Shown: positions 45,860-62,744, counted from the stretch's first letter. The stretch is DNA of 64,000 nt from Kiritimatiellia bacterium (GCA_041653875.1 JBAZEM010000006.1:46585-110584); one strand, 5' to 3'. A program made the numbers and translations. The notes: generated from the sequence alone by a model not told the origin.

Positions 45860-46525
45860 ATGGCCAGACCCGTATTGTCCGGCCTCGGCAGGCAACAAGC
45901 GATGAGCGATGAAAATAAATCAAAGTTTTTTTGTCATAATGCGTCTAATATGATAAAGAACACTCTTATGATAACGTCCGATTCCAGCGACGAGGAACTT
46001 ATTGCCGACTTCAAGCAAGGGGGCGACCGGGCTTGCTTGGAGGCGGTGATTAAACGACATGTCGGGAAAGTAAGGGCCATGATCTATCATATGGTTCTGA
46101 ATGACGCCGATGCCGACGATCTGACGCAGGATGTTTTCATTCGTATGGTCAATGCAATCTGCGGATTTCGGGAGGCATCCAGTTTTTCTACCTGGCTGTA
46201 TCGCATTGCCATGAATACGACGGTCGGTTTTCTTAGGAAGAAACAACGGATGCCTGTGGCAACCGAATCTGATTTGACGGTTTTGGTGGATGGCGCGGCT
46301 TTGCCGCACGATAAAGTGTCGGCCGATGAAACCGATGGCTTGATCGCCAAAGCTCTGGCGTCGCTCAGTCCCCGCCTAAGGGCGGCGATCAGTCTGACGG
46401 CGATTCAAGGCTTGGAAGCGGCGGAGGCGGCGCGGATCGAAGGTTGCGCTTTGGCCACGATGTACTGGCGCATTCATCACGCCAGGCGTCTGCTAAGGAA
46501 GAAGTTGGAGGGCCTGCAAAAATGA
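45860..46525 (+). CDS. ECF-type RNA polymerase sigma-70 factor
   Basis: Region 2 (DADADDLTQDVFIRM..FSTWLYRIAMN) and region 4 (LEAAEAARIEGCALATMYWRIHHARRLL). The true start is probably internal (at about 45902-45970). Confidence 0.7.
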   Translation: MARPVLSGLGRQQAMSDENKSKFFCHNASNMIKNTLMITSDSSDEELIADFKQGGDRACLEAVIKRHVGKVRAMIYHMVLNDADADDLTQDVFIRMVNAICGFREASSFSTWLYRIAMNTTVGFLRKKQRMPVATESDLTVLVDGAALPHDKVSADETDGLIAKALASLSPRLRAAISLTAIQGLEAAEAARIEGCALATMYWRIHHARRLLRKKLEGLQK

Positions 46526-47289
46526 AAAAAAACCAGCTTAATGAAACCCTGCGTGCATGGGCGCGCCGGCGGGAATGCGGCGAGCAACGCTTGCAGGCAT
46601 TGACGGACGCCATCATGCAGTCGCTGCCCCGCCATCCATGCGTTTTTGAACCGGAGGATGCTCCGGCCATGCGGCGCCTTAACTTGTGGCCCAGCGTTAC
46701 ATATATCGCAATGGGAGCGGCGGCCATGCTGGCGATCGTTCTGGGGATCAACCTGGCGCGGCCTCATACGGCATTGCCGATTTCCTCGTCCCTTGGATTG
46801 CCCGCGAATTATGCCGTGTCCAAAGCCGTGGTTATAAGGGAAATGAGCCGCCTGTTTTCCGGGCAATTGCGCTGGGTGGCGGAAAACAACGGCGACATTA
46901 AAGTCGGCATAGATTCCGAGACGAGCGCGCGCGAAGGCGATTCGACATCCGCCTGGATCCAAACGGTGGTTGTCACCCGGCGGGCCGGCGAATCGACCTG
47001 GCGTCCGGTTTGGAGCACGGCGGTCCAAGTTCACAACGATGAACAGGTCGAATTGACCTTGCCCGCTGATTCCGAGGGGCGCTTAATGCTCTGGGCCTAT
47101 GCCGTGGACAAGGACAAGTGGGCCGTCGATTCCTTGTGCGCTTGGACCACCCCGGTGCGGCTGTCTTCCGAAAGCAGTGAAATCATCGAAACCGGCAAAT
47201 ACCAGGAGATCGCCGCGCTGAAGACCGATAACCGGGAATATCGAGTGTTTCAAACGGTGCTCAATATGAAACCTGACCGGAATTCGTGA
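46522..47289 (+). CDS. Putative anti-sigma factor (single-pass membrane protein)
   Basis: ATGA-coupled to the sigma gene. Central TM helix VTYIAMGAAAMLAIVLGI. Confidence 0.5.
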   Translation: MKKNQLNETLRAWARRRECGEQRLQALTDAIMQSLPRHPCVFEPEDAPAMRRLNLWPSVTYIAMGAAAMLAIVLGINLARPHTALPISSSLGLPANYAVSKAVVIREMSRLFSGQLRWVAENNGDIKVGIDSETSAREGDSTSAWIQTVVVTRRAGESTWRPVWSTAVQVHNDEQVELTLPADSEGRLMLWAYAVDKDKWAVDSLCAWTTPVRLSSESSEIIETGKYQEIAALKTDNREYRVFQTVLNMKPDRNS

Positions 47290-47290
47290 C

Positions 47291-48283
47291 ATGAGAACGA
47301 TCGGCCTTATGCTGGGATTCTTGCTGGTATGCACCGCGGCACAAGCCGCGCCCAAGCTTGCGATAGTCGTGCAAGAATCTTGGAACGATGTGTTTGGCGG
47401 CAAGGAGGCGGTTTTTCATGTCCTGGTCGGCGCCCGGGAAACCACTCGGGGACGTCTGGCATGGCGCTACGCGGCGGGGGATAAGACCATTGCCCGGCAG
47501 GAACGCGAGATCGATGTGGCGCCCGGCCGATCGCAGAACGTGGAAATCCGCCTGCCCGTGCCGGAGGTGAAAGCGGGGGTTATTCTAAACACAACGCTGT
47601 CAGTTGCGGTGAATGAAAATGGCGCCGCGCAGGCAACGGCAACCCTGGAAAAGACCCTCTGGGTTTTTCCGCCGGATCCGTTTGCCGGCCGCGCGGAATG
47701 GCTCAAGGAGCAAAACTTCTGGCTGTTCGATCCGGAGCGGAAAACGGCGGAGCGATTCGAAAAGTCCCATATCCCGTTTAAACGCATATCGGATGTAGGC
47801 GCTTTTCAGGATGTTCGAAATGGCGTCGTGGTCATAGGCGAGGGGGTCTCGTTCAAGGTCTATCGGGGGCTTTGGGATCAATTGATGGCGGTGGCATCGA
47901 GCGGTGTTCCCGTCCTGTGCCTTGCCCCCGCGGAGGGCAGTGTCCCACTGCTGGCGCCGGATGAATCGGCCTTTCCCGCGCCGGCAAGTCTGAAACTTGA
48001 AAAGGCCGCCATCATTCGAAAACTTGACAAGCGCTTGGATGCCGAGGCGTGGCCGCCGGACGGCCTGATCTGCTTGCGGACATTGACCGTTCGCGGCGAA
48101 CGAGGCGCTGTGATTGGCGAAATGGCGCCGCCCGCGGCGGGCGGCTGGCCTTGGATCGAAATGAGCGGCGGGTTGCCTCGCGGACGGTTGATTGTCTGTT
48201 GTTTTGCCGTTATCAAGAAGTGGGAGACCGGTCCCGCGCCGCGATTCCTGCTGGAGCGTGTTCTGCAATATATGTCCGAGTAA
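47291..48283 (+). CDS. Secreted hypothetical protein
   Basis: Signal peptide MRTIGLMLGFLLVCTAAQA. Abuts the anti-sigma gene. Confidence 0.5.
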   Translation: MRTIGLMLGFLLVCTAAQAAPKLAIVVQESWNDVFGGKEAVFHVLVGARETTRGRLAWRYAAGDKTIARQEREIDVAPGRSQNVEIRLPVPEVKAGVILNTTLSVAVNENGAAQATATLEKTLWVFPPDPFAGRAEWLKEQNFWLFDPERKTAERFEKSHIPFKRISDVGAFQDVRNGVVVIGEGVSFKVYRGLWDQLMAVASSGVPVLCLAPAEGSVPLLAPDESAFPAPASLKLEKAAIIRKLDKRLDAEAWPPDGLICLRTLTVRGERGAVIGEMAPPAAGGWPWIEMSGGLPRGRLIVCCFAVIKKWETGPAPRFLLERVLQYMSE

Positions 48284-48334
48284 AACAAGATCGCGTCACA
48301 CCATGACGCGCTGCAAAAGTCCGCGCCGGTCATG

Positions 48335-48545
48335 TTCGAGTTGGGCCTTCGGCAACTATGCCGTTCTATCGAACGGCCTCTACACCGGACGGCCTGTCTG
48401 AACTCGACCAGGGGTGTAGTTGCGGTTCGATAGAACCGCTGTGTTTTAAATTTCCTATGCATTAAATTAAGCGCCGAAACGGGGCGACTTTTTTCCATGT
48501 AGAGCCGACTTTATGTCGGCTATCATAGCCGGTGTTCCGCCGTCG
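48335..48545. repeat. BIME-like mosaic repeat copy (inverted orientation)
   Basis: Reverse complement carries TAGGAAAT plus the GCGGTTCTATCGAACCGCAACTACACC hairpin. The plus strand carries the CATGTAGAGCCGACTTTATGTCGGCTATCATAGCCGGTGTTCCGCC module. Confidence 0.75.
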
Positions 48546-48596
48546 GTGCTGGGTTGCGGGTTCCCGCGTCGGACAATCATTATAGGAGGAGTGAGA

Positions 48597-49016
48597 ATGA
48601 AAACAATCGCAGTCGCTCTTGGATCGATCGTTGCCTTTGCTCTGTGCGCCATCGGCCAAGACGCCAATGAAACATCCGTTGCAGGAATGCCGCCCGGAAT
48701 GTCGGGATCTTACGGAACCGAACAGGCAATCGTCCTCAAAGTTTTCGCGGCCGAAGATGGCGAGGCGCGTTTCCGGGCCTATCAGGTGAAATGGAAGGAT
48801 CAAGACGTAATTGTGTCGGATATGATGGGCGCAACTAACTTCAAGGAAGGGGACAAGATTACATTTATGGTCCAAAACATCCAGATGCCGGTGGGCGGAA
48901 AGAAACTGAGAATGCTGCAATTCATGATCATGGACTTCAGTTCTTTCATGCCGAAACAAGGCGGGTCGAACCAGGCGGCGGAAGGTATCGGCGCGGAAAC
49001 CATGCCGCAGCCTTAA
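48597..49016 (+). CDS. Small secreted hypothetical protein
   Basis: Signal peptide MKTIAVALGSIVAFALCA. GGAGGAG RBS. Confidence 0.45.
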   Translation: MKTIAVALGSIVAFALCAIGQDANETSVAGMPPGMSGSYGTEQAIVLKVFAAEDGEARFRAYQVKWKDQDVIVSDMMGATNFKEGDKITFMVQNIQMPVGGKKLRMLQFMIMDFSSFMPKQGGSNQAAEGIGAETMPQP

Positions 49017-49055
49017 CGCGGGCCTTAACCAAACCAAGAAAAGGAGATCGAAACC

Positions 49056-50027
49056 ATGAAGACGATAACGAGCGTACTTATGAGCGGCATGATGTGGCTG
49101 GGCGCGGCCGGATTATCGATCGGCGCTGAAACCGGTGAGACGGTCAAGCCGGAAAAGACGCCGATAGTCTATCCGACGGCCATCTTTGCGTTCCAGGAGC
49201 GCGGTTCGGGCGTCAAGGACTATGGCGCCAAGGCGGCGGACATTCTCTTCGCGTCCCTGGCGGCGAATCCGGCCTTGTGCCTGGTGGACCGGGCGGACCT
49301 GCATAAATCGCTCCAGGAGCATGAACTGAACCTTTCCGGGATCGTGACTCCGGATCAGGCCGTGCAGATCGGCAAATTGACCGGTGCCCGGATCCTGGTG
49401 ACCGGCTCCGTGGTGGACGCGGATAAGACCATCTATGTGATCGCCAAGATCATCGGCACGGAGACCAGCCGCGTGTTGGGCGAGTCCGTGAAGGGCAAAT
49501 CGAGCGACGATCTCGCGCCCTTAATCGAGCAATTGGCGAAACAGGTGGCGGACACCATTGTCAAGAAAGCCGATCAATTGGTGGCCAAAGAAGTCAAGTT
49601 GGAAGACCGGATTGCCGCATTGAAAACCAAGTTGGGCGATGCCAAGCGACCGGTGGTTGCGATTAACGTCCAGGAGCGCCATGTCGGCCATATCACCATC
49701 GACCCGGCCGCCGAGACGGAATTGACGTTATTCTGCAAGGAAACGGGCTTTGAAGTTTTGGATAAGTCCGGGGACGCCAAAAAAGCCGACATCAGGCTGG
49801 AAGGCGAAGGGTTCAGCGAGTTTGCCATGCGCCACGGGAACTTGGTCAGCGTCAAGGCGCGCCTGGAGGTCAAGGCCATCGACCGCCAGACCGACAAAGT
49901 GATTGCCACGGACCGCCAGACCGCCGTGGTGGTGGACTTGACCGAAGAGATTGCCGGCAAATCCGCGCTCCAAAAAGCCGCGTCCGAGATCGCCGAACGT
50001 TTGTTGCCCAAGATCGTCAATAAGTGA
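49056..50027 (+). CDS. Secreted protein with CsgG/TolB-N-like alpha/beta domain and coiled coil
   Basis: Signal peptide. Motif ...LVDRADLHKSLQEHELNLSGIV...AVQIGKLTGARILVTGSV resembles the CsgG/LpoB/TolB-N fold signature. Paralogs at 56510 and 63691. Confidence 0.45.
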   Translation: MKTITSVLMSGMMWLGAAGLSIGAETGETVKPEKTPIVYPTAIFAFQERGSGVKDYGAKAADILFASLAANPALCLVDRADLHKSLQEHELNLSGIVTPDQAVQIGKLTGARILVTGSVVDADKTIYVIAKIIGTETSRVLGESVKGKSSDDLAPLIEQLAKQVADTIVKKADQLVAKEVKLEDRIAALKTKLGDAKRPVVAINVQERHVGHITIDPAAETELTLFCKETGFEVLDKSGDAKKADIRLEGEGFSEFAMRHGNLVSVKARLEVKAIDRQTDKVIATDRQTAVVVDLTEEIAGKSALQKAASEIAERLLPKIVNK

Positions 50028-50053
50028 GAAGACAGGGCTGACGGGAGGCATCT

Positions 50054-51946
50054 ATGGCCTATATCTATTTCAAATGCTCGTGCGGCAAATCGCTGGCCAT
50101 CGATGAGCGCGGTGTTGGCCGAATTATCGAGTGCGTCGATTGCGGCAAGCGGGTGACGGTCCCGGAATGGGAATATGCGTTTACCTGTTCGGAGTGCGAC
50201 GCAACGTTTGGCGCCGCTTCCGGCATCGCCGATGATTGCGCGCGGTGCGTTATTTGCGGGGACAAGTTTATCGTTCCCAGGAATAACGCTCCGTCGCAAA
50301 ACGATCTTGAAGGCGCTTCGATCGGCGAACAAACCGATCGTCCCGTAAACGAAGTCAAACTCCCGGCTTCGGGCGCTGCGCCGAATTCTCCGTTGCCGCC
50401 GGCGGCTTCATCCCGGAAATTGGTTTTCCCCGCGATCGACTGGGCGCGCCTTCAAGTCATGCTCTATCGCTTAACGTCCGTGGTTGTCGTGGTATTCATT
50501 GGGGTGACAGGGTTAAGCTGGTTTGTTTCCAAAGTCTTCCAATCGAACGAAGGACTATCCCGTGAAATCGAACGCAGTTCGAAACAAGGCGACGTGGCGG
50601 CGTCCGTTGCCGTTCTGGAGTCGGCCATCAAGCAATACCCGTTGGCGTTCGCCGGCGGGCGCCGCGCCAGGAAGTTGTTGGCGGATAACAAGACGATCGT
50701 TCAGGATACGACCAACTTGTCCGCCGCGCTCGTGCTGGCCAGGAAAGATACGAATGGCGAGTCCGCCGCCGAGCGCCTGGCCAAAGCCATAAAGAAATAT
50801 CGTCGGGCAGCCAACCGCGCCGAAGCCGAAACACTGGAAAAGAATATCCAGGCCCAGCTGAACGATTCGTGGGTGCTTTCCCTGGCGCTGAGAAACGGCC
50901 GGGCGACGGCCGATGTTCCCGCCCGGATCGAATTATTGAAAAAGGCCCTGACGGAGTGTCCTTGCGCCACCAACCGCGCCGACGCGGAAGCGATGATTGC
51001 CGCCGCCGGACAGCAATTACGGGAAACTGCCGGACTTGACCAGGCCATCCAACACGCCCGGAAGGAAGGCGATCCCTCTGAGAACGCCAAACTGCTTGCC
51101 GATGCGCTGGCCAAATATCCCCAAGCGACAAATCGGGAAGCCGCGTTGGGATTGTTGAAAAATTTACAGACGCAGGCAGGTGGGCAAGTCAAGGATCCCC
51201 TCTTGCAGGCGATTGTCAGCGCCAGGGCGCAAGACACCTTTGCCGCCGCCATCCGGGTGCTCACCGAGGCTTTGAAAATCAACAAAGATTCTCCCTATCG
51301 GGTCGAGGCGGAGCAGGTGTTGGCCGTTTATCAGAAACAATCGCTCGAAAGGACGACGGAACAAAAATCGGCCGTGACGGATTACATCGAAGAAGCCACG
51401 GATGCGTTGGCAAGCAGCGGATATGTCTTCCTGCCGCCGAACAAGGCCTTGGCCGGCGCCGGCGGAGTGTTGAGCTTATACGATAGTCCCTTGGCCAATA
51501 AAATTATCGCGATGAATTATGGCGTTGAGGTCAGACTTCGTAAAATCGCGGGCAAAAAAAATAAAGACGGCGCCGGCGGTCCGCCCCCGGCGGATTCCCT
51601 GCATTATGTTCCACGCCTGATTCTTTCGGCGAAAAACGGGGAAATTCCTCGGGGAAATATCGTTGTCATCGAGTATTACCTCGCCGATTATCAGGACAAG
51701 GCCGCCGGGCAAAGAGCGAAGGTCGAGCGCATCACGTTCCCGAAGATATCCAAAGGGCAGGCCCTGGCGGTGGATTGTCGGGGGATTGAGTGCAGTCCGC
51801 CGGTCAAAGGCGCCGCGTCAAAAAAAGAGGCCGGCAATAAATTGTACGGCATCATTGTCAGCGTGTACGGCAAAGGCAGTGAATTGCTCCTGCAGAAATG
51901 TTCAATGGCCAAACTGGTCAAGGAATGCAGTGTGCAGACCTATTGA
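50054..51946 (+). CDS. Zinc-ribbon (two CxxC pairs x2) transmembrane protein with about 45-aa helical repeats (KYPxATNR motif)
   Basis: N-terminus CSCG..CVDCG and CSEC..CVICG. One TM helix. Four repeats containing K(K)YxxA(T/A)NRxEA. Confidence 0.5.
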   Translation: MAYIYFKCSCGKSLAIDERGVGRIIECVDCGKRVTVPEWEYAFTCSECDATFGAASGIADDCARCVICGDKFIVPRNNAPSQNDLEGASIGEQTDRPVNEVKLPASGAAPNSPLPPAASSRKLVFPAIDWARLQVMLYRLTSVVVVVFIGVTGLSWFVSKVFQSNEGLSREIERSSKQGDVAASVAVLESAIKQYPLAFAGGRRARKLLADNKTIVQDTTNLSAALVLARKDTNGESAAERLAKAIKKYRRAANRAEAETLEKNIQAQLNDSWVLSLALRNGRATADVPARIELLKKALTECPCATNRADAEAMIAAAGQQLRETAGLDQAIQHARKEGDPSENAKLLADALAKYPQATNREAALGLLKNLQTQAGGQVKDPLLQAIVSARAQDTFAAAIRVLTEALKINKDSPYRVEAEQVLAVYQKQSLERTTEQKSAVTDYIEEATDALASSGYVFLPPNKALAGAGGVLSLYDSPLANKIIAMNYGVEVRLRKIAGKKNKDGAGGPPPADSLHYVPRLILSAKNGEIPRGNIVVIEYYLADYQDKAAGQRAKVERITFPKISKGQALAVDCRGIECSPPVKGAASKKEAGNKLYGIIVSVYGKGSELLLQKCSMAKLVKECSVQTY

Positions 51947-52014
51947 ACCGGCAAATGAATGGGCCATTCGTTTGTGAAATATGCGGACATTTTGGAATAT
52001 ACGAGGAGACAACG

Positions 52015-55000
52015 ATGAGTAGGCTGATCGTCAGGATGTTATACTCAACGGTTCATCGTTGGAACTGTGCCATGCGCGTCACCTTGCATTTTTCACTCGC
52101 ATTCACTTGGCGGCATTGCGTTGTCCTTGTCTGTATTATGGCCGTTGTGGCGGTTGTCGCCAAGGCCGATACGCACTATGTGTCCCTCGCGGGAACGTCA
52201 GCCTCCCCTTATACGAACTGGGCGGAGGCGGCTAATTCGATCCAGGCGGCCGTGAACGTTGCCGGCGACGGGGACGAAGTTGTGGTGGCTGACGGGGACT
52301 ACATCCTTTCCGAACAAATCGTCATCGCCAAGGGAATCACGGTCCGGAGCGATCTCGGGCGTTCGATGTGTCGGATTGACGGCGACAATGTGTGCCGATG
52401 TATTTGGCTTGCCCACAGTAACGCCGTAGTCAGCGGGTTTACCATTACGCGGGGCTTGGCCGGCCAAGGGGGCCAATCTGACGGCGGTGGGGGGATTTAT
52501 GTTGACCGGGCCGGCACGGTGCGCGACTGCAGCATTGCCGATAATATTTGCTCCAATATCTACGGCGTAATGTGTGGCGGAGGAATATATCTTTCGGGTG
52601 GAGGGACAATCCAAAATTGCCTTGTGTCAGGCAATATAGCCGACAGTAGCGTAGCATCCGAGGGCGGCGGCATTTACATGTCTGGCGGTCTTGTCGAAAA
52701 TTGCCTTGTTATCGGCAATATTAATCGGCCGACAGGTTCGGGATGGGGCGGCGGCATTTATCTTGAAACGGGCATCGCGAATCATTGCACGATCGTGAAT
52801 AACAGCGGCGTATATTCGGGTGGCGGCGTATATCTGAAGTCCGGCGTCGTCGTCAATTCCATCGTTCTTTACAACCAGGCGACAGGATATCAGGAGTGTC
52901 GTATAGTTGGCGGCGGGTCGGTTTCATTCACCTGTTGCACCTGGTATGATGGAATGTCATACGATGCCGGCAATGTGTATAATAAAGACCCGCTTTTTGT
53001 CGATTATACGAACGGCGACTTCCATCTGCAGGAGGGCTCCCCATGCATCGATGCTGGGGCGACAACGGATGTTGTGACGGTGGACTACGAGTATGCGACC
53101 CGTCCTTTGGACGGCAATGTGGACGGGAATTTTCGCGTGGATATGGGCGCATTCGAATACCGTGTGACAGACCTGCGTTGCAGTGTGGCGGTGAACACCA
53201 ACCAGGGCTTCGATCCATTGCCGGTGCGATGCGAGTGCTTTACGGGCGGGACAAATCTCGATGGCCTGTATTACCGGTGGGACTTCGATAACGACGGCCA
53301 TATCGATCTTGCCGGCCCGGATTTGGCGGTGGTGACGAATACCTACACCAATTGGGGCTGGAAGACGATCACGGTGATGGTGAGCAATGTGGCGGGAGAA
53401 GCAGCGTCAGCGGCATTGACGAATGCTGTCAAGGTCGGTCATCCGTTGGTCTATGTCTCCCCCTCCGGCTCGAGTGTGTTTCCTTATACGAACTGGACGA
53501 TGGCCGCAACGAACCTGAATTCGATTGACGATCTGTTGGTGGATGGAACTGAGGTTGTCGTAACGAACGGCCATTATGACCTTTCTCAGGAATTTTCCCT
53601 GAATTTTGCCGTCACTTTAAGGAGCGTGAACGGCTGGAGGCAAACGACCTTGGATGGCAACGATATAACCCGTTGCGTTCGGCTTGCGCACTCTGGCGCC
53701 GTGGTTGACGGATTTACGCTGACCCGCGGTTCCGCTTTAAGTGGCGGCGGCGCCTATCTCAACGGCGGTACGGTGCGGAACTGCTGGATTCACGGCAATC
53801 GCGCTCGCAACGGTGGAATTTCCGGCGGCGGCGGCGTCTGTATGTACGGCGGAAGATTGGCAAACTCTTTGATTACCGGCAACAGTGCGGCCTCAAGTCC
53901 GGTCAACGAAGCCAATACGCGCGGCGGCGGCGTTTGGCTGAATAATGGCGGCATTGTCGAGTTCTGCACTATTATGGCTAATTCCATTTCATCCGGGCGA
54001 GGAGGTGGCGGGTTGTACGGAGGCGGTTCAGCATCCTCCGGGGGCACCCTCTACAATTGCATAATCTGGGGAAACACGGCGCCGACCGGCGCGAACATCG
54101 GTCAATGGAATAACTGCATCGGCGCTTATTACACGTGTTCGACTCTGACAGGTTATATGGCGAGCATGGAGGGGAATATCACAAACAATCCGTGCCTGAG
54201 CGCCGACTGGCATCTTCTGGCCGGGTCGCCGTGCATCAATGCGGGAACGAACCTTTCCACTGCGCCTATGGACATGGAAGGGATATCGAGGGACCTGGCC
54301 GGAAATCCGGACATGGGTTCCTTTGAATACAACGGAACGACCTATCCGCCAATGATTACGGATCATCCTCTGTCGCAGGCCAAAAACCCGGGGTCAACGG
54401 CAACCTTCAGTGTGGCGGTGGTGGGGATCGCGCCGCTGTATTACCAATGGCAGAAAAACGGCGTGAACATTGCATCGGCGAACAGCACGAACTATATGAT
54501 CAATCCGGTAATGGACTGGAGTGCGGGGGGATACCGTTGTCTGGTAAGCAACGCGGCAGGTGTTGTGGAGAGCGCGGTGGCGGTGCTGAACGTGAACGCG
54601 CCGGTGGCGATCGCGACTCAGCCGCAATCGCGCGCGAACAATCCGGGTTCGTCGGCGAGCTTCACTGTGGCGGCGACGGGGACCGCGCCGCTGTGTTACC
54701 AGTGGCAGAAAAACGGCGCGAACATTGAATTGGCGAGCAATACGATCTACATGATCGATTCGGTGGCGGCTGGTGACGCGGGGGCGTACCTTTGCCTGGT
54801 AAGCAACGTAGTCGGGGTGGTGGCAAGCGCGGTGGCGGTGCTGAGCGTAAACGCGCCGGTGGCGATCGCGACTCAGCCGCAATCGCGCGCGAACAATCCG
54901 GGTTCGTCGGCAACCTTCACTGTGGCGGCGACGGGGACCGCGCCGCTGTATTACCAGTGGCAGAAAAACGGCACGAACATCGAATCGGCAAGCAATACGA

Positions 55001-56415
55001 TCTACACGATCGATCCGGTAACGCTCGGCGACGTGGGGACATACCGTTGCCTGATAAGCAACGTGGTCGGTGTTGTGGAGAGCGACGCGGCCCTGTTGGG
55101 CGTAAATAATCCGGTGGCAATCACAACTCAGCCGGAATCGCAAACGATCAATCCGGGCGCATCCGCGAGCTTTACGGTGGTGGCGACGGGGACCGCGCCG
55201 CTGTGTTACCAATGGCAGAAAAATGGAGTGAACATTGGTTCGGCTAACAGTGCGACCTATATGATTGCTTCGGTAACGGATGGTGACGCGGGGGAGTACC
55301 GTTGCATAGTGAGCAACATGGCCGGCTCGGCCACAAGCGCCGTGGCAGTTCTGACCGTGCAAAAGGCGCTGCCGCCTCTTGCCCCCACGGGCGTGTTCGC
55401 CAGTGACGGAGAATACACCGACAAGGTGCGCGTAACCTGGAATGCGGTAGGCGAGGCAACCGGCTACCAGGTCTGGCGGAGTGCAAGCAATAACATCGCG
55501 ATCGCCTCCAACCTGGCAACCACCGCAACGACAACCTACGACGATCTGAACGCCGCCACGATGCCCGGAACTGTTTTTTATTACTGGGTGAGGGCCGTAA
55601 ACGCCGCGGGCGCCGGCGGTTTCAGCACAAACGATCCCGGCTATGTGAGACCCGCCATCGGGCCGACCATCAAGGCCAATGGCACGGTGGGGGATGTCGC
55701 CGTCAATTATCCGGACGCTATGGAAATCACCATCGAAATTAACGAGATCAACAATGAGGGGGCGCCTGCTGATTGGTGGGTTCTTTCGCTGGCCGGATCG
55801 TCCTGGTACTACTTGAATAATGCAGTTGAGTGGACGCCGTTCGATGGCGACCTTTCTAATTGTCATCCGCTGTACCAGGGCGGTTTATTCAATCTGCCGT
55901 CCACGCTGTTGCCGGTGTTGAATATACCCGGCTTGCCGGTTAGTTCATATTCGTTCTGGTTCGCGGTCGATGCGCAGATGGATGGAATTCTGAACGTGGA
56001 TGGGCAGATCCTGGTTGATTCAGTGAATGTCACCATGCTTTCGACGTTGCCCGCGCCCCGTATTAAGGCCAATGGCGCAACTGGTATTGTCAACGTCAAT
56101 TATCCCGATACTGTGTCAATCGCCGTGGATCTGACTGCCAGGGCTTATGCCGGTGTACCTGTCGATTGGTGGGTGCTTCTTTGTGCCGGCTCGTCTTGGT
56201 TTTATATGGATGGCACGGTGGGCTGGACGCAGGCTGGTGTTTTGCGGCCGGTGTACCAGGGTGCTTTGGGCAATCTGCCGGCCGTTGAAGTGTTGAATGT
56301 TCCCGGTTTAGGAATTGGCTCATATACGTTCTATTTTGCTGTCGATCTGCCGATGAATGGGATTCTGGATTTGGAACAGGTTTGGGTAGATTCGGTGACG
56401 GTAAACGTTCGGTAA
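52015..56415 (+). CDS. Giant surface protein: two right-handed beta-helix (pectate-lyase-like) modules, PKD domain, 5 tandem Ig-like domains, FN3-like and C-terminal repeats
   Basis: GGAGAC RBS. NxxGGGIY beta-helix rungs. PKD motif YRWDFDNDGH. Five 83-aa Ig repeats encoded by 249-bp DNA repeats at about 54360-55360. Confidence 0.75.
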   Translation: MSRLIVRMLYSTVHRWNCAMRVTLHFSLAFTWRHCVVLVCIMAVVAVVAKADTHYVSLAGTSASPYTNWAEAANSIQAAVNVAGDGDEVVVADGDYILSEQIVIAKGITVRSDLGRSMCRIDGDNVCRCIWLAHSNAVVSGFTITRGLAGQGGQSDGGGGIYVDRAGTVRDCSIADNICSNIYGVMCGGGIYLSGGGTIQNCLVSGNIADSSVASEGGGIYMSGGLVENCLVIGNINRPTGSGWGGGIYLETGIANHCTIVNNSGVYSGGGVYLKSGVVVNSIVLYNQATGYQECRIVGGGSVSFTCCTWYDGMSYDAGNVYNKDPLFVDYTNGDFHLQEGSPCIDAGATTDVVTVDYEYATRPLDGNVDGNFRVDMGAFEYRVTDLRCSVAVNTNQGFDPLPVRCECFTGGTNLDGLYYRWDFDNDGHIDLAGPDLAVVTNTYTNWGWKTITVMVSNVAGEAASAALTNAVKVGHPLVYVSPSGSSVFPYTNWTMAATNLNSIDDLLVDGTEVVVTNGHYDLSQEFSLNFAVTLRSVNGWRQTTLDGNDITRCVRLAHSGAVVDGFTLTRGSALSGGGAYLNGGTVRNCWIHGNRARNGGISGGGGVCMYGGRLANSLITGNSAASSPVNEANTRGGGVWLNNGGIVEFCTIMANSISSGRGGGGLYGGGSASSGGTLYNCIIWGNTAPTGANIGQWNNCIGAYYTCSTLTGYMASMEGNITNNPCLSADWHLLAGSPCINAGTNLSTAPMDMEGISRDLAGNPDMGSFEYNGTTYPPMITDHPLSQAKNPGSTATFSVAVVGIAPLYYQWQKNGVNIASANSTNYMINPVMDWSAGGYRCLVSNAAGVVESAVAVLNVNAPVAIATQPQSRANNPGSSASFTVAATGTAPLCYQWQKNGANIELASNTIYMIDSVAAGDAGAYLCLVSNVVGVVASAVAVLSVNAPVAIATQPQSRANNPGSSATFTVAATGTAPLYYQWQKNGTNIESASNTIYTIDPVTLGDVGTYRCLISNVVGVVESDAALLGVNNPVAITTQPESQTINPGASASFTVVATGTAPLCYQWQKNGVNIGSANSATYMIASVTDGDAGEYRCIVSNMAGSATSAVAVLTVQKALPPLAPTGVFASDGEYTDKVRVTWNAVGEATGYQVWRSASNNIAIASNLATTATTTYDDLNAATMPGTVFYYWVRAVNAAGAGGFSTNDPGYVRPAIGPTIKANGTVGDVAVNYPDAMEITIEINEINNEGAPADWWVLSLAGSSWYYLNNAVEWTPFDGDLSNCHPLYQGGLFNLPSTLLPVLNIPGLPVSSYSFWFAVDAQMDGILNVDGQILVDSVNVTMLSTLPAPRIKANGATGIVNVNYPDTVSIAVDLTARAYAGVPVDWWVLLCAGSSWFYMDGTVGWTQAGVLRPVYQGALGNLPAVEVLNVPGLGIGSYTFYFAVDLPMNGILDLEQVWVDSVTVNVR

Positions 56416-56509
56416 TTTGGGATGGAATCCTGACAACAAATACAGCAGTTTCGGGGGCGGCAACGTTGACATGGTTGTCCCGGCTCTCTCGCTTGAGTAT
56501 GGATCAATC

Positions 56510-57517
56510 ATGAAGTCTCGAAACCAAAAGCTTTTCGCCCTGTTACTGATCCTTGCCGGAATTGGAATGGGGTATCTATGGCCGGCCGAAGCCGGCGCGG
56601 CGGGGACGGCGCAGATCAGTCTGAGCGGGGCGGTCTATCATGGCAATGAGCCGGATTTGGGGTTGACTGACTTTTGGTTGGCCACTTTGTCGAAACAGGC
56701 AACCATTAAAGTGCTTGAGCGCGCAGATATGCGCGCCATTCTGGGAGAGCTTTCCCTGGCGGGGGTGAGCGACGACTCAGCGCGCCAGGTCCGGTTGGGC
56801 CGATTGCTGGGGGTCGAATATTTTGCATGGATTAAAGCGTCGGACGAACAGGCCCTTTTGGAAGTTGTCGAGGCGGCGACCGGCCGGGGTGTCACGGTCG
56901 TTCCTGTGCGCTTCGCCAAGGGGCATTTCGCCGATATCCTGCCAAAATTAGCGGAGCAAGCGGCTCAGGCGGTTAGCAAGCCACCGCCAGCTCCATCGCA
57001 GGTCGCGCCATCGCTTGCGTTTTCGAACCCCCGCTTTTCCACTTCCAACGAGACTGTGCAAGCGGCGGTGGAAAAAGTCATGGCCGATTTATCGGGCGCC
57101 TGGGCCGGTTCCGGCATTACGATGCTGCCGCGCCGTTTTGCGGCGGATGCGGTACAGGAACGCTGGCGGCAGGAAAAGGGACTGGTGGAAGACACCTCGC
57201 AAGGCCAGGCATTCCTGGGCGCCGATTACATTCTGGGCGTTGCCGTTGACGCCACGAATCGGATCGAATTGATCATGGTCGAAACGGTAACTGGGCGCCG
57301 GCTCGGGAAAAAGGAAATGCCTCTTGAGGTGGCGCGGACGACTGAAGGATTGAAAACCATGAAGGAATGGGGGTTGGACCGATTGAAGCCGCTCATGAAG
57401 ACTCCTTCCATCCTTCCTCCTGCCGCAGTATGCATTAGCCGATCTGGGACCGGAAATCCTCGCTCCTTTAACAAACGGCGACGCGGAAGCCATGCGGCGA
57501 ATAGAGGATCGCGTTAG
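56510..57517 (+). CDS. Secreted CsgG/TolB-N-like domain protein (possibly N-terminal part of a frameshifted fusion with the Sel1 gene)
   Basis: Signal peptide. Motif LERADMRAILGELSLAGV...VRLGRLLGVEYFAWIKAS. The last about 35 aa in this frame look non-proteinaceous, while the +1 frame reads through cleanly into the next ORF. Confidence 0.45.
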   Translation: MKSRNQKLFALLLILAGIGMGYLWPAEAGAAGTAQISLSGAVYHGNEPDLGLTDFWLATLSKQATIKVLERADMRAILGELSLAGVSDDSARQVRLGRLLGVEYFAWIKASDEQALLEVVEAATGRGVTVVPVRFAKGHFADILPKLAEQAAQAVSKPPPAPSQVAPSLAFSNPRFSTSNETVQAAVEKVMADLSGAWAGSGITMLPRRFAADAVQERWRQEKGLVEDTSQGQAFLGADYILGVAVDATNRIELIMVETVTGRRLGKKEMPLEVARTTEGLKTMKEWGLDRLKPLMKTPSILPPAAVCISRSGTGNPRSFNKRRRGSHAANRGSR

Positions 57518-58382
57518 TCTGGCTGCTCAGGAATACAATCGCGTTGCCCTAACCATTGTTCGCGAAGCTAAAATAGCGCTGGGACAGGATATCGGCATTA
57601 TCAAATCCCCCCCGAGAGACCTTTACGAAGACACGGAGAAGGATTGGGTGATGGCTGTGGAAAAAAAGGCTGTGGACGGCGACCTATTCTTTATAGTGAT
57701 CGCGGGGGTGCTTTGTTACAATGGATACGCTAATGTCCCTGTTGATCGACAGAGGGGCATAGCATTGTGGCAAAAGGCCGCAAACTCAAACTGCGGGCTG
57801 GCCAAGTTGCGGATGGGGCAATGCTATGTAAATGGGGAGGTGCTCCCTCATGATTTAAAGAAGGCGGCGGTGTATTTTCGCGAAGCCGGCGAATTGGGAG
57901 TGCCAATTGGGTGGGATAACCTCGGATGTCTTTATAATGGCTGGCAGGGATGGTCTCCACGTGACCTTAATAAAGCCATGGATTACTGGGCAAAGTCCGC
58001 TCAAATGGGTTATGCCAAGTCGCAATTCAATCTCGGTTTTTATTACTGCAATGGAGATGAGGCTTTTCCTGTCAACAAGGAACTGGGGATTCAATGGATG
58101 CGGGCCGCGGCCTCCAATGGGCACACGCGCGCCATATCGTATCTTGCCGACTATGTCGATAAAAAACCTGCCCCAAGAACATTGCCGTCCGTCATTGAGG
58201 ATAAAAGCGCCGAGGTCGTTTCAACCTTCATTGAGTTCGATAAAATCAAGGAAAACGTTGCGGGAACGAAGGTTTCTGCGGTGTGTTTTGTGGATTCCTA
58301 CGATCCAGCTAAACCCGGCGGAAGTAGTACCCCGTCCCAAATGTCGCGGCCGGTCAAAAACGGACGATTTTCGCCGGTTTGA
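57492..58382 (+). CDS. Sel1-like repeat (SLR) protein
   Basis: Repeats of A..W..KAA.QG...AQ..LG..Y..G type (GIALWQKAANSNCGLAKLRMGQCYVNG; AMDYWAKSAQMGYAKSQFNLGFYYCNG). Confidence 0.6.
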   Translation: MRRIEDRVSLAAQEYNRVALTIVREAKIALGQDIGIIKSPPRDLYEDTEKDWVMAVEKKAVDGDLFFIVIAGVLCYNGYANVPVDRQRGIALWQKAANSNCGLAKLRMGQCYVNGEVLPHDLKKAAVYFREAGELGVPIGWDNLGCLYNGWQGWSPRDLNKAMDYWAKSAQMGYAKSQFNLGFYYCNGDEAFPVNKELGIQWMRAAASNGHTRAISYLADYVDKKPAPRTLPSVIEDKSAEVVSTFIEFDKIKENVAGTKVSAVCFVDSYDPAKPGGSSTPSQMSRPVKNGRFSPV

Positions 58383-58384
58383 AA

Positions 58385-58930
58385 ATGGATCAAAAATATG
58401 ATTATGTTGCCGTCAAAGGCGATAACATTTTCACAGGTAGGGCGAACCCTCCGGGTGAGCCGTTCTTCATCAAACGGCTCGGCAGGGACGCCTCGCCCTA
58501 CCATTTCGGCAATCCTATAAGAAAGCCATACCGAGCAAACCAGATAAGAATATCTTTTAAAAAAGGTTCCGAACTATATCCATTTTCAAACCGGCCATTT
58601 CAGGTAGAATTAGAACGGCGTTTGCACCAAATGCTGGACATTTACCTGGCCAGGCTCAGGACGCTCAAGCGCCGGCCGACGGAGACTGCCGGCGTCAATA
58701 CGGTGAACCCCGCAGACGTGAAAATATTCATCGTTGAGGGCCGGGAGGACACGCGCGCCAAAGTGCGGGAATTCGACAACCAATATCAACTGAAAACATA
58801 CGACGGCTCTATCCCGGTCATATATGTTTTTAATTCGGGACGATGGGTTAAAACCTACACCTACAGCCGCGATCCCGGCCCGAATGGCCTGGAGTTGAAG
58901 GCGCTGGTGGAAAGCTTGCTGGCAAAATGA
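58385..58930 (+). CDS. Hypothetical protein
   Basis: ATG at 58385 immediately after the upstream stop. No recognisable motif. Confidence 0.4.
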   Translation: MDQKYDYVAVKGDNIFTGRANPPGEPFFIKRLGRDASPYHFGNPIRKPYRANQIRISFKKGSELYPFSNRPFQVELERRLHQMLDIYLARLRTLKRRPTETAGVNTVNPADVKIFIVEGREDTRAKVREFDNQYQLKTYDGSIPVIYVFNSGRWVKTYTYSRDPGPNGLELKALVESLLAK

Positions 58931-59115
58931 AGCAATGGCTTGTTTATATTGGCATCTTGCTGGTGACAGCGGCGGTCACATATGCCGGTGACGATTCGGC
59001 TATCCGGATTGCCGTACTGGCCGAGGATGTGTCGCCGGAAAGTCGCGCCTTGACCGACCTGCTAACGGCCGACCTCTTCCAAGTCAAATACGTTTTGAAA
59101 ACATTCGGAGATTAA
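58927..59115 (+). CDS. Small secreted hypothetical protein
   Basis: ATGA-coupled. Signal-peptide-like N-terminus. Confidence 0.3.
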   Translation: MKQWLVYIGILLVTAAVTYAGDDSAIRIAVLAEDVSPESRALTDLLTADLFQVKYVLKTFGD

Positions 59116-59119
59116 ATTC

Positions 59120-62100
59120 GTGAAGTTACAAAATCCATCTCTTTTTGGACTGCTTTCGATCCTTTTGGGACTGGGCATGGCCGCAGGGTGTTTCCCTCCA
59201 AGGAACGCAAATTCCAAGACCACCGAACAACCGGACGTGCCGCGCCCCTTGGTGATTGTCGAGCGCGGCGAGATGGATCCTTCCGGAAGTGAAGGGATTT
59301 TGCTCCGTGAATTGGGACGCCAGGCGGTGATGATCGCCGCCCGCGAGGGGTTGGGCGCCCGCACGTGGGACATGACGCTCATGGATACGGCGCCAAGTCC
59401 GGCGGCCACCAACGCGTTAACGGTTCGGCTGTGGATGTCGGCCACAACCAACGGTTTCAAAATCGGCCTAAAGTCGGTCGGCGCCAATGGCGCGACCGCT
59501 CAGTTGCTGGAGCGAACGATCGAGACTCCGGCGCGGCAGTTCCTGGACTATGAAACGCTCATTGCCAACCTTGAAGCCATGTCGCGCTCCACGTTTGTCG
59601 ATGCATTGAAATCGGCGGGCATTGCGCCGGTCGTGATCCCACAGTCAACAGGTCATGTGCGGACGGCATCATCCGGAAATGACGCTTTATGGGGCAGTAT
59701 GGACGTCTTTACTCACTGGGCGGCTCTGCGTGCGCTTCATAATGAGATTCGCATTCAGGGGGAATCGTCCGCCAATCTGGCGGAACTGGCGCGGGGTTAC
59801 GCCAATATGGCGCAGATGACCCGTTTTTGCTGGAACTCGATGGATAAGGCGTGCATGGCGCGAGCCTTGCTCTATGCCCAGCGCCTGATGGCTACCCGGC
59901 CGGAAATGTCCATGGCCAGGGCTTATCGCGCTTATGTTCGGGCATTGTGTGAAAGGCATGGGCCGGCCTTGGAAGATATCGACGCTGTGCGCAAAGCCTG
60001 TGGCGGCCGGACGAATGACCTTCCGGCATGGTTGGACATCCTGGCGTCCTATTGCCGATATCGAACGGCAGTCCTCAATGACCGGGCCGAGAAGGAGCCG
60101 AATAATCAACTCTTGTCGTTACTCCGGGTCATGGCTGTTCGCAACGCGAGGAGCGAGACAGTCCGGTTAAACATAATCCAGGATGCCCTGAAGAAGGCGC
60201 CGTTGTGTTCTGTCCTGTATGACGACTGGTGCGCCGTGCCGGGGGTATCGGTGGGGCACCAGGCGACAACCATGTCGCCCGTCGCATTTGCTTCGACCCT
60301 GTGCCAAATAATTAGCAGAATGAAAATCCTGCCGAATGAGATACGCGAGCTGGCGCTGCAGGGCGAAAAACAGCGACATGATCGGCGAGGCTCTGCGGGG
60401 TCGGACGTGGACGCTAAACTGCCTGGTTTTCAGGACGCGGCGATCCGAACCAACCTGGTCCATAACTTGTATGCCATCGGCGAGAAAGACTCGCGGGAAC
60501 CCTCCGTAGCCATGTTAGGAGCGCTGATCGAGAGTGCCTCGTTCGTTCAAATCCAACGCCGTTTTTATTTTATGGCTGATGTGTGGGGTCTTCCTTCGGA
60601 AGAAATAAAGACGCTTATGCCCGCCGTCAAGCCTTACATTGCCTCCCATCCCTATCGGGCGTTCATCGAAAGCTATGCGTTAAATCCGCAACGCGACAAG
60701 TCGGTCTATACCCAATCGATGGCTGGGTTGGTCGTGATGGATATGAAGCCCGCCATGGCGCCCATCGTCAAAGTCCGCCCCCCTCTCGACATCAACGCTC
60801 AGTCCGATCAAATCGCCGGCGACCTGGAATCCCGGATTTTAAAACAAGCGTCCCGGAAGGAACCGGACAATGCCAGGGAGTTGCAGCGGGATGTCGCCGA
60901 ACTGGAATTGATCAGTCCGTTTTCTCCGGTGGCCGTGACCGCCCGCATCAAGATCGATTGGGACCAGTCGGCGAATCGCGTGGCGGCGTGGGAAGCGTGC
61001 GCTTCGGAACAGCCGGATATTGCCCGCGCCCTGGCTTTGAAGTACCGCGAACTTGAGCGCTATCGAGAGGCGGAACGTTTTTTGCATTTCTGGGCAGATC
61101 AGACGCGGGACTACTCAGCCTATTATGCGTTGGCGAATAACTTTTCGCGGCAAGGACAGACTAACGAGTGGTTGGCCACGATGGAAGACGCTCTGAAAAA
61201 TGTCCGGGATACCGGTCTCGATCATGCCGATATTCGGATAAAAATCGCCCTTTATTATATGCGGCTCGGGCAATGGTTAAAAGCCGTTCCTTATGCCGAA
61301 ACAGCCGCCAAAACATGGGCCGCTCGGGCCATGACCTGCGCCGCGCAATGTTATGAAGGCGCGGGCCAATGGGCGCAGGCCGAGCAGTGGGTCCGCCGAA
61401 ATGCGGAGCGCTATGACGGGGAGCGCCTGAAATGGTATTGCTGGTGCCGGCGCACGGGGCAGGGGAACGCGTCCGCCGCGCTGGCCTTTGCGAACAAGTA
61501 TGCGGCAACATTCGAGGCCAGCGAACAGACCAAGGATCGATATTGGGCGGCGGCTTTCTATCAATTAAGCGGCGACACAAACAAAGCGCTTGAAATATGG
61601 TCGAAAGCTTACACGCAACATCGCCATCCTTATCCCGGTCTCCACGCCGTATTGTTGCTGTCCCAACTGAATCGGTCCCATGAACGGGATGCTTTGCTTA
61701 AAAAAATAGTGAAGCGCGCCGATTCGCGCACAAGTCAGCGAAGCGATTTGCCCGCCCTGAATGCAATGGCCGTGTTGTTCCAGCAATATTTGGGCGGGGC
61801 CGACCGTCTGGATTTCGATGAAAAGGCGGCGGATATCGTCGCTTATAGCGACGATGCCGATGAGCGCGAATATTTGTGCTATTTTGCCGGATATTTCTAC
61901 GAATTAATGGGCGAGCCGGAATTGTCGGTTGCATACTACGAACGCGCCGACGATCTTTTTTTGCCGTATATGCAGCCGGTCTATCTGGCCGGCGCCGCCC
62001 GGCAACGACTTAAGGCCGGCGGCAAAATGGCGGGACGGCCGGGCGCGAACCTAAATCGCCCAGGCAAATACGACAGCGCCATAGAGTTTGCCCGGAAGAA

Positions 62101-62635
62101 GATATCCATGATGGAATCCGAGTTCGGCACGAACCATCTCGATGTGGGGGATGCGGTGTATGAACTGGGCAATCTCTATTACAAGCAAGGCCAATACGCG
62201 GCGGCCGGGCCGCTCTACCAACGTGCGCTGACGATCTGGGAGAAGGCGCTCGGCGCCGGCAATCGCGATTTGGCCGTTCCATTAAGGGCTTTGGGATTGG
62301 TCTATTATAAACAAGGCCGGTATGCTGTGGCTGAACCGTTCTTCCAACGTGCCTTGGCGATCCGGGAGAAAGCCTTGGATCCCAACCACGTCGATGCGGC
62401 CGAGTCGTTGCGTGACCTTGCCCGTCTATATTACAGGCAAAAGCGATACGCGGCGGCCGAGCCGCTCTACCGCCGCGCCTTGGCGATTTTGGAAAAAGCC
62501 CGCGGCCCTGACCATCCCGATGTGGCAAGGGTTATGGAAGACATGGCGCATCTCTATGGCAAGACCGGCGACAAAACGAAGGAACTCGAGTACAAAGAAC
62601 GTGCCGCCAAAATCCGTGAAAAATCGCGTAAATGA
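59120..62635 (+). CDS. Large lipoprotein with C-terminal TPR (TPR_10/12, kinesin-light-chain-like) repeats
   Basis: GTG start. Lipobox LGLGMAAGC. C-terminal repeats LGNLYYKQGQYAAAGPLYQRALTIWEKALG x4. Confidence 0.65.
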   Translation: MKLQNPSLFGLLSILLGLGMAAGCFPPRNANSKTTEQPDVPRPLVIVERGEMDPSGSEGILLRELGRQAVMIAAREGLGARTWDMTLMDTAPSPAATNALTVRLWMSATTNGFKIGLKSVGANGATAQLLERTIETPARQFLDYETLIANLEAMSRSTFVDALKSAGIAPVVIPQSTGHVRTASSGNDALWGSMDVFTHWAALRALHNEIRIQGESSANLAELARGYANMAQMTRFCWNSMDKACMARALLYAQRLMATRPEMSMARAYRAYVRALCERHGPALEDIDAVRKACGGRTNDLPAWLDILASYCRYRTAVLNDRAEKEPNNQLLSLLRVMAVRNARSETVRLNIIQDALKKAPLCSVLYDDWCAVPGVSVGHQATTMSPVAFASTLCQIISRMKILPNEIRELALQGEKQRHDRRGSAGSDVDAKLPGFQDAAIRTNLVHNLYAIGEKDSREPSVAMLGALIESASFVQIQRRFYFMADVWGLPSEEIKTLMPAVKPYIASHPYRAFIESYALNPQRDKSVYTQSMAGLVVMDMKPAMAPIVKVRPPLDINAQSDQIAGDLESRILKQASRKEPDNARELQRDVAELELISPFSPVAVTARIKIDWDQSANRVAAWEACASEQPDIARALALKYRELERYREAERFLHFWADQTRDYSAYYALANNFSRQGQTNEWLATMEDALKNVRDTGLDHADIRIKIALYYMRLGQWLKAVPYAETAAKTWAARAMTCAAQCYEGAGQWAQAEQWVRRNAERYDGERLKWYCWCRRTGQGNASAALAFANKYAATFEASEQTKDRYWAAAFYQLSGDTNKALEIWSKAYTQHRHPYPGLHAVLLLSQLNRSHERDALLKKIVKRADSRTSQRSDLPALNAMAVLFQQYLGGADRLDFDEKAADIVAYSDDADEREYLCYFAGYFYELMGEPELSVAYYERADDLFLPYMQPVYLAGAARQRLKAGGKMAGRPGANLNRPGKYDSAIEFARKKISMMESEFGTNHLDVGDAVYELGNLYYKQGQYAAAGPLYQRALTIWEKALGAGNRDLAVPLRALGLVYYKQGRYAVAEPFFQRALAIREKALDPNHVDAAESLRDLARLYYRQKRYAAAEPLYRRALAILEKARGPDHPDVARVMEDMAHLYGKTGDKTKELEYKERAAKIREKSRK

Positions 62636-62700: not shown

Positions 62701-62744
62701 ACGGACAGCGACACGCTGTCCCTCCCAAAAACATACACGCAAAA

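Follow-up and report, generated by a model that had tools for sequence, protein, structure and literature searches.

A conserved ECF sigma operon with a periplasmic TolB-N/CsgG-fold partner within a composite 16-kb gene block of a Kiritimatiellia bacterium

A 64,000-nt stretch of DNA from a Kiritimatiellia bacterium (JBAZEM010000006.1:46585-110584; hereafter the window, with positions counted from its first nucleotide) carries a block of plus-strand genes between approximately 45.8 and 62.6 kb. The block opens with the gene of a sigma factor of the extracytoplasmic function (ECF) type, and its genes are numbered g1 to g12 here; g13 lies beyond it. In the initial annotation these 16 kb had suggested one sigma-regulated surface or adhesion module or an uncharacterised envelope machine. 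Comparison with related loci revealed that the block is composite, consisting of a conserved core, lineage-specific surface genes and broken gene fragments, rather than one machine. We lean, by a small measure only, towards a division in two layers. The first (45921-48283 and 49056-50027) would be a sigma / anti-sigma / g3 / g5 operon that is conserved in the Planctomycetes-Verrucomicrobia-Chlamydiae (PVC) superphylum. The second (48335-49016 and 50054 onward) would be a plastic tail particular to the lineage of the window. In this tail repeats resembling repetitive extragenic palindromic (REP) sequences and g4 would have been inserted, and g6 and g7 placed between g5 and its usual big partner. 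The big partner would have been reduced to its head (g8), and it would be followed by a Sel1 gene without signal peptide that is split by a miniature inverted-repeat transposable element (MITE), the stub g11, the orphan g12 and g13. All listed plus-strand open reading frames (ORFs) are present. The same genes had been called independently on metagenome contigs of identical sequence (ENA ERZ27247358, JGI 3300029288 and others), with predicted proteins of 207, 255, 330, 139, 323, 630, 1466, 335 and 296 aa.

The evidence for the conserved core comes from 80 related loci obtained in a scan of one genome per species. These loci belong to Kiritimatiellae, Lentisphaerae, Verrucomicrobiota and Planctomycetota and include the complete genome of Singulisphaera sp. 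Ch08. All proteins of the window were compared by BLAST with every ORF of the 80 loci, within a distance limit of 10 kb from g5. The g3 gene was found to adjoin g5 in all 71 loci with enough upstream sequence, in the order g3-then-g5 in 69 of them, and the median gap is 36 nt; in the window the gap measures 772 nt and is filled with repeats. A sigma gene is located upstream of g3-g5 in 42 of the 62 informative loci, and g2 is co-conserved in 43 of these 62 with an identity of 22-38%. The g5 protein is 53-84% identical to the window protein across the 80 loci, and median identities are 64% for g5, 45% for the sigma factor, 38% for g3 and 28% for the anti-sigma factor. Neighbour-joining trees of g3 and g5 are consistent with co-inheritance of the two, since the two trees have several small groups of loci in common and the window clusters with L009-L011 in each. 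A hybrid origin of the window locus from sigma-linked and sigma-less modules was rejected on the same clustering of g3 and g5 with L009-L011. The link between the sigma pair and envelope proteins proposed in the initial annotation holds for the sigma factor, the anti-sigma factor, g3 and g5, which are co-conserved in four PVC phyla, but not for the remainder of the block. BLAST gave no match in the 80 loci for g4, g6, g9, g10, g11 and g12, while g7-like proteins were found in 2 and g8-like proteins in 4 of them. The same annotation had named a lack of co-conservation as a reason to abandon the idea of a single unit, and such a lack is what was found for most of the 16 kb. Two g3-g5 pairs were observed in one genome, the metagenome-assembled genome (MAG) MJ-time_bin-3222, on its contigs L015 and L026. 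Here, the pair with sigma and anti-sigma genes encodes a g5 that is 73% identical to the window protein, the pair without them one that is 64% identical.

A conserved motif resembling an ECF-type promoter, CAAAGT-N16-GTCTAA with -35/-10 like elements (45921..45948, plus strand), precedes the sigma gene; its conserved form ahead of orthologous sigma genes is CAAAGA-N16-GTCTAA. The motif emerged from k-mer enrichment over 42 regions that precede these orthologues. Of the 42 regions, 33 contain GTCTAA, compared to 2 expected, and 21 contain CAAAGA, with a spacer fixed at 16 nt. Using a matrix built from the other loci and not from the window, a score of 24.2 was obtained for the window site, which is the sole strong site in the 64 kb; the maximum among 20 shuffles was 15.5. 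The exact pattern is expected 0.00 times by chance in the window, and plus-strand copies occur in 18 other loci. In a matrix scan of 1.1 Mb of related loci, sites scoring at least 17 were found to precede a sigma gene in nearly all cases. Four sites off the sigma gene (L038, L039, L049 and L083) have scores of 25-28 or 18.6. Three of these (L038 4065-4092, L039 55-82 and L083 2613-2640) are located directly upstream of genes for 1099-1347-aa proteins of the 'big' family described below, and these genes themselves sit just upstream of the sigma operon. As the three extra sites were outside the training set, they provide independent support for the sigma factor driving the big family. Judging from its position and conservation, CAAAGA-N16-GTCTAA is probably the autoregulatory promoter of the sigma gene. 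A different promoter, GGAAC-N17-CGAC at 45821, had been suggested in the initial annotation. It was rejected because its frequency is at chance level (2 copies in the window compared to 0.57 expected, and at least 2 in 11 of 100 shuffles) and it is missing upstream of orthologous sigma genes.

The sigma gene g1 (45969..46525, plus strand) encodes a protein of 185 aa with sigma regions 2 and 4 only (Sigma70_r2, PF04542, 58.9 bits; Sigma70_r4_2, PF08281, 35.4 bits). It also matches TIGR02937 with 82.2 bits, compared to a cut-off of 42.9, while none of the NCBIfam equivalogs reaches its cut-off with g1. The assignment to the ECF family is thereby upheld, but the start at 45860, as originally drawn, is not. 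The ORF starting at 45860 encloses the promoter motif, and the ATG at 45969 yields a length of 185 aa that matches the 182-189 aa of the orthologues; the start was therefore revised to 45969, leaving 20 nt between it and the conserved -10 element, a spacing also found in these orthologues. The main text of the ECF classification paper does not mention a CsgG or TolB context. The next gene, g2 (46522..47289, plus strand), overlaps g1 by ATGA and encodes a putative single-pass anti-sigma factor of 255 aa with a transmembrane segment at residues 55-80, preceded by ~54 residues. Its designation as an anti-sigma factor is suggested by position, ATGA coupling, topology and co-conservation.

Two exported proteins complete the core. 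The first of these, g3 (47291..48283, plus strand; 330 aa), is a secreted protein with an Ig-like sandwich (residues 23-126) and an alpha/beta domain (residues 135-330). Its structure model is confident, but there is no full-length solved analogue, and the g3 family has neither a Pfam entry nor an NCBIfam match. Sequence profiles of g2, g3 and g5 gave no relative among solved structures. A match of g3 to MS2 coat protein (E 3e-4, to the tandem-dimer chain only) was treated as chance, and kinship of its alpha/beta domain to the ThuA/DUF4350 domains of the big proteins was discarded as there was no profile match. A 153-aa protein in the sigma-less locus L007 (4477-4938), encoded ahead of a big-family gene, has a match to g3 (E 3e-11) that is confined to the Ig-like N-terminal half of the latter.

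The best-conserved gene of the module is g5 (49056..50027, plus strand), encoding a periplasmic protein of 323 aa with two tandem TolB-N/CsgG-fold domains. Pfam CsgG (PF03783) matches g5 with 33.5 bits (cut-off 20.8), covering model positions 34-102 of 210 only, and fold matches were obtained with TolB-N, CsgG, PelC and LpoB. The CsgG/TolB-N likeness noted at the outset thus survives both profile and fold tests, and the resemblance is that of a shared periplasmic fold. More than 2500 g5 relatives were scored. Among these, the 120 best share at least 63% identity with g5, are named "CsgG/HfaB family" or "TolB-like", and originate from MAGs of Kiritimatiellae, Lentisphaerae and Verrucomicrobia. 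The signal peptide of g5 is of type I and has no lipobox, and 41 of 42 g5-family members are also without a lipobox-like motif. Accordingly, g5 is predicted from its sequence to be a soluble periplasmic protein and not a lipoprotein.

In 42 of 66 loci g5 is followed on the same strand, at most 6 kb downstream, by one or more genes of the big family. These ORFs are mostly 900-1700 aa long and carry a CsgG-like domain. The head of the big proteins is TolB-N/CsgG-like, as in g5, and their tails vary (WD40, DUF1080, DUF4350, ThuA and TPR in Pfam). In Singulisphaera sp. Ch08 (NZ_CP155447), g3, g5 and a big-family gene are present with no sigma gene next to them. In the window this family is represented by g8 (56510..57517, plus strand), a head-only truncation with two TolB-N/CsgG-like domains and then 29 out-of-frame residues. 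It is 63-71% identical to residues 1-301 of the 894-1070-aa proteins encoded directly after g5 in L006 and L007. The profile of the big family matches g8 with E 1e-34, and g8 is also a clear paralogue of g5 by profile, with 29% identity over 106 residues. The Pfam CsgG match of g8 is weak (E 0.0067; 16.2 bits, under the cut-off of 20.8). The description of g8 as a second CsgG/TolB-N-like protein is therefore correct as far as its domains are concerned, but it is the truncated head of a family of ~1000 aa. Homology of g8 stops at ~57430, and ~10 nt further on homology starts, in another frame, to residue 24 onward of the next gene. At this deletion junction (~57430-57441) a tail of ~770 aa and the signal peptide of the Sel1 protein are gone; from the homology break it follows that ~2.4 kb was lost.

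The gene after the junction has been interrupted as well. Its 5' part, g9 (57492..58343, plus strand; Pfam Sel1), lacks the signal peptide of its orthologue and is colinear with residues 38-331 of a 429-aa L007 protein, of which the first 24 residues are the signal peptide. Its 3' part (58634..58930, plus strand) is 63% identical to L007 residues 325-429 and is contained in the 183-aa ORF g10 (58379-58930), which gave no family match. Between the two lies a MITE-like insertion of 283 nt (58344..58626), flanked by a 7-bp target duplication (CCAAATG; 58337-58343 and 58627-58633) and containing 18-nt perfect inverted repeats (58373-58390 and 58578-58595). Removal of the MITE and one copy of the duplication restores a continuous ORF that aligns end to end with the L007 protein. 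For this reason the Sel1 ORF and the 183-aa ORF, initially listed as separate genes, are regarded as one gene split by the insertion. Further copies of the MITE in the available sequence are partial: an internal stretch of 39 nt recurs in the window at 63444-63482, and one of 73 nt in L012 (20175-20246), another Verrucomicrobiota MAG. The small ORF g11 (58927..59115, plus strand), likewise listed as a gene, is a 62-aa N-terminal stub of a big-family head, with a signal peptide and the first elements of the TolB-N/CsgG-like head. It matches positions 8-50 of a hidden Markov model (HMM) built from 62 big-family N-termini with 22 bits. Translational coupling by ATGA overlaps had been noted for many genes of the block. 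Of these overlaps, only those of g1/g2 and g10/g11 are genuine; that of g8/g9 is a by-product of the deletion and that of g9/g10 a by-product of the insertion. The block was also said to end at 62635. A further CsgG-like-domain gene, g13 (63691..64000, plus strand), is only partially included and leaves the window; it encodes an N-terminal TolB-N/CsgG-like head with signal sequence (E 6e-7 with the HMM of the big-family head, 8e-4 with that of g5 domain 1), and the sequence to 63822 was confirmed by the NCBI contig L093. Therefore, the cluster of head-bearing genes extends past this end.

We propose that the core is an autoregulated ECF sigma/anti-sigma envelope signalling operon, with g3, g5 and the big proteins as outputs or periplasmic co-sensors. 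The anti-sigma factor would keep the sigma factor at the membrane. An envelope signal, perceived via the periplasmic domain of the anti-sigma factor and possibly with g3 and g5, would free the sigma factor, which would then start transcription from CAAAGA-N16-GTCTAA of its own operon and of some big-family genes. The TolB-N/CsgG-fold heads may serve as periplasmic docking or oligomerisation modules, as in TolB, PelC, LpoB and CsgG, and the tails of the big proteins as partner-binding modules. Overall, this would amount to an envelope sensing and scaffolding system and not to a curli-type pore. More speculatively, the sigma/anti-sigma/g3/g5/big module might be an undescribed PVC envelope system, in which a periplasmic TolB-N/CsgG-fold family under an ECF sigma factor that has its own promoter type builds or monitors a structural element of the unusual cell envelope of these bacteria (e.g. 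an outer-membrane tether or scaffold), the soluble tandem-domain protein g5 with its 53-84% identity in four phyla being the conserved core; this extended proposal is put forward tentatively and is doubtful.

Several other explanations were weighed. In the one closest to the initial annotation, the whole 16 kb encodes a single machine for adhesion or secretion under sigma control, its CsgG-like channels exporting the 1466-aa adhesin g7 with the aid of the Sel1 and TPR proteins. All genes are indeed on the same strand with short gaps, Pfam CsgG matches were obtained, g7 has adhesin-like domains, and one other locus, L023, has a g7-like beta-helix gene behind g5. However, g6 and g9-g12 have no match in the 80 loci and g7-like proteins occur in 2, g8-g11 are fragments, and g5 has no lipobox and matches only the periplasmic alpha/beta part of CsgG. 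Furthermore, a Pfam search of the block proteins gave no curlin, CsgE/F or Hfa partners. No motif copy precedes g4, g5, g6, g7, g12 or g13 in the window, hence none past g3, and g3 is followed by a terminator-like hairpin (48422-48439, plus T-run; a consensus match only). These data lend no support to a CsgG-type secretion channel for the adhesin, and the single machine is considered quite unlikely. About as improbable is an incidental linkage, in which the targets of the sigma pair lie elsewhere and g3-g5, an envelope operon in its own right, merely tends to be located downstream. The sigma gene is missing in 20 of the 62 loci, and the gap of 772 nt between g3 and g5 in the window, with its repeats and terminator-like hairpin, would fit such an arrangement. 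Yet the sigma gene has been kept in the other 42 loci over four phyla, g2/g3 and g3/g5 nearly abut with no second promoter motif, and the extra motif copies precede paralogues of the same protein family.

A role of g3 and g5 as periplasmic co-regulators, comparable to RseB or MucB, deserves more credit and is possible, although we do not expect it to be correct. These proteins would bind the periplasmic domain of the anti-sigma factor and set the threshold for sigma release, and the big proteins would be sensed clients or the true effectors. The gene order sigma, anti-sigma, g3, g5 is fixed and the gaps are minimal, in agreement with this idea, and so is the better conservation of g5 (median 64%) than of the sigma factor (45%) and the anti-sigma factor (28%), as would befit a protein that makes many contacts. 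A weak profile match was also obtained between the Ig-like region of g3 and the periplasmic part of the L020 anti-sigma factor (E 0.007), but this single match is marginal, similarity in fold to RseB or MucB is lacking, and 20 of 62 loci have g3-g5 without adjacent sigma and anti-sigma genes. It is very improbable that the truncation, split and stub in g8-g11 are artefacts of metagenome assembly and that the genes are intact in the real genome. It is true that short-read contigs are broken within the MITE and within the REP region, and that one of them diverges after 63010. Against this, L001, an assembly made independently, agrees at 100% identity over the 57430 junction and on into the left MITE half, and three other assemblies start in or just past the right half, connected to the 3' part of the gene. 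A clean 7-bp duplication, inverted repeats and exact restoration of the frame would not result from an assembly error.

The envelope signalling operon proposed here, with its lineage-specific tail, also has to be reconciled with data that weigh against it. In 20 of the 62 loci, including the closest genome relatives L009-L011, g3-g5 is present without adjacent sigma gene or motif, and these sigma-less loci are scattered over the tree. It follows that g3-g5 can function apart from the sigma factor, or under the control of a copy at a distance. Since sigma-upstream sites served to train the promoter model, its independent sites are limited to the one in the window and the three extra ones. No recognisable anti-sigma domain is present in g2, and neither g2 nor a 32-sequence profile gave a sequence match in Pfam or PDB. 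The function of the promoter, the binding of sigma and anti-sigma factor and any role of g3 and g5 are all inferred. With respect to the tail, g8, in which head and signal peptide are complete, could still be functional, and transcription from the sigma promoter could extend through g4, g6, g7 and g12 in the window organism.

Operons in which an ECF sigma/anti-sigma pair is combined with periplasmic partners are already known. The rpoE-rseA-rseB-rseC operon of E. coli and the algU-mucA-mucB operon consist of an autoregulated ECF sigma factor, a membrane anti-sigma factor and co-transcribed periplasmic modulators. As in these operons, the ECF sigma gene of the window is translationally coupled to a gene for a single-pass membrane protein, followed by genes for exported proteins, and a conserved promoter motif lies directly upstream of the sigma gene. 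In contrast, neither in sequence nor in fold do g2, g3 and g5 resemble RseA, RseB, RseC or the Muc proteins, and CAAAGA-N16-GTCTAA lacks the usual AAC-type -35 element. With CsgG/HfaB (PF03783), g5 shares a score over the gathering score, and NCBI names its relatives "CsgG/HfaB family protein". Unlike these outer-membrane lipoproteins, it has no lipobox, matches only the N-terminal periplasmic part of the model and has the fold duplicated in tandem. There is also no evidence of membrane hairpins for a pore in g5, and neither HfaA nor HfaD was found among the block proteins in Pfam, in addition to the missing curlin and CsgE/F. Similar to the combination of PelC and PelB, the fold occurs together with TPR-rich partners; head and TPR are fused in the big family. 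Lipid-anchored PelC differs from g5, which is predicted to be soluble. Unlike TolB, g5 has no C-terminal beta-propeller, and unlike in the contexts of PelC, LptE and FlgT, no pel, lpt or flagellar genes are found near g5.

A description of the partner proteins and the promoter consensus was not found in the searchable literature on ECF plus CsgG/TolB in PVC bacteria, the coverage of which is incomplete. The analysis has set a small, strongly conserved, uncharacterised operon apart from lineage-specific material. It has also corrected the annotation of the window with respect to the sigma start, the promoter, three to four fragment ORFs, the MITE and the repeats, which are not boundaries. The promoter consensus is common to Kiritimatiellae through Planctomycetota, the g3 family is without Pfam entry or solved full-length analogue, and g5 is better conserved than the sigma factor. 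If it is truly an envelope sensing or scaffolding system, the module would provide a genetic handle on the poorly understood periplasm and outer membrane of PVC bacteria, and it can be studied in cultivable Planctomycetes carrying it. The result is best regarded as a well-supported lead from comparative genomics and not as a demonstrated new mechanism.

The genes that are particular to the lineage of the window differ widely in size and architecture. The small secreted protein g4 (48597..49016, plus strand; 139 aa) starts at the ATG at 48597 behind a ribosome binding site and has no Pfam or NCBIfam match. The g6 protein (50054..51946, plus strand; 630 aa) is a mosaic of a double zinc ribbon (CxC/CxxC plus CxxC/CxxC), a transmembrane segment at 131-163, four to five repeats of ~53 aa with YPxATNR, and a C-terminal domain. 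This architecture had been recognized correctly at the start; the repeats are weakly TPR_6/TPR_14-like. Only 3 full-length relatives of g6 were found among 5.8 billion proteins, and 3 with E <1e-30 in an exhaustive HMMER search, while the N-terminal ribbons (1-80) and the C-terminal domain (~470-626) recur separately in many other proteins. A g6 relative follows g5 in L089; in L090 one is located between a dehydrogenase and a thioredoxin-like gene. The surface or adhesin-like protein g7 (52015..56415, plus strand; 1466 aa) has two choice-of-anchor-Q beta-helix regions, four Ig I-set domains and one fn3 domain, in agreement with the adhesin-like character assigned to it before. Its C-terminal part contains two repeats, with 255-nt repeats at 54354-55418. 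A g7-like beta-helix gene downstream of g5 was found in one other locus only, L023 mentioned above.

The last gene of the original block, g12 (59120..62635, plus strand), encodes a TPR protein of 1171 aa (TPR_12 and related families) with a lipoprotein-like signal, i.e. a signal-like hydrophobic segment at residues 6-27 and a GC lipobox-like motif read from the translation. The Sel1 and TPR domain calls of the initial annotation hold in Pfam. A metagenome pattern scan for relatives of g12 gave one weak TPR match and no relative. No similarity that would make g12 a diverged member of the big family or the missing tail of g8 was detected by BLAST, tblastn or HMM, and a single frameshifted gene consisting of g11 and g12 is unsupported in the three-frame view.

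REP-like hairpin repeats, also resembling bacterial interspersed mosaic elements (BIME), are present at 48335..48545, between g3 and g4, and at 62648..63360. Such mosaic repeats had been regarded as brackets of the block. The first set lies inside it, however, and its families are dispersed over other intergenic regions of the window, at 14873-15250, 32310-32460, 36933-36995 and 62648-63360. In this dispersal of hairpin repeats over several intergenic regions they are like REP/BIME elements. The 283-nt element is like known MITEs in its inverted termini, its 7-bp target duplication, the restoration of the host ORF upon excision and the existence of related copies. Unlike for typical MITEs, no autonomous parent or transposase was identified, and the further copies in the available sequence are partial. 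In L092 (4148-7000; a contig of ENA ERZ27247358), g12 is followed after 63010 by pseudopilin-like genes (N_methyl, T2SSG) and not by g13; this path represents either an alternative route through the REP repeats or strain variation. Another ECF sigma gene, on the opposite strand, is found in L092 beyond g12.

Scans for tRNA genes and Rfam families gave no match inside the block. Elsewhere in the window, two cobalamin riboswitches on the minus strand (6898-7083 and 19982-20149) score well over the Rfam gathering score. A 129-nt tandem repeat (2541-3298; 5.9 copies, 90% matches) lies within the minus-strand ORF 2534-4321, and an 18-nt repeat in 4 copies (40359-40431) within the minus-strand ORF 39664-41292. 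Period-7 tandem arrays occur in several intergenic spacers (21536-21566, 22874-22916, 23936-23983, 24010-24047, 30895-30991, 44911-44942 and 44988-45025). Their units differ (AACGAAG, GAAGAAC, GAAGTCA, AATCGGC, GACGACG x14 and AACCAAG), and the arrays are sometimes arranged as inverted pairs around a spacer.

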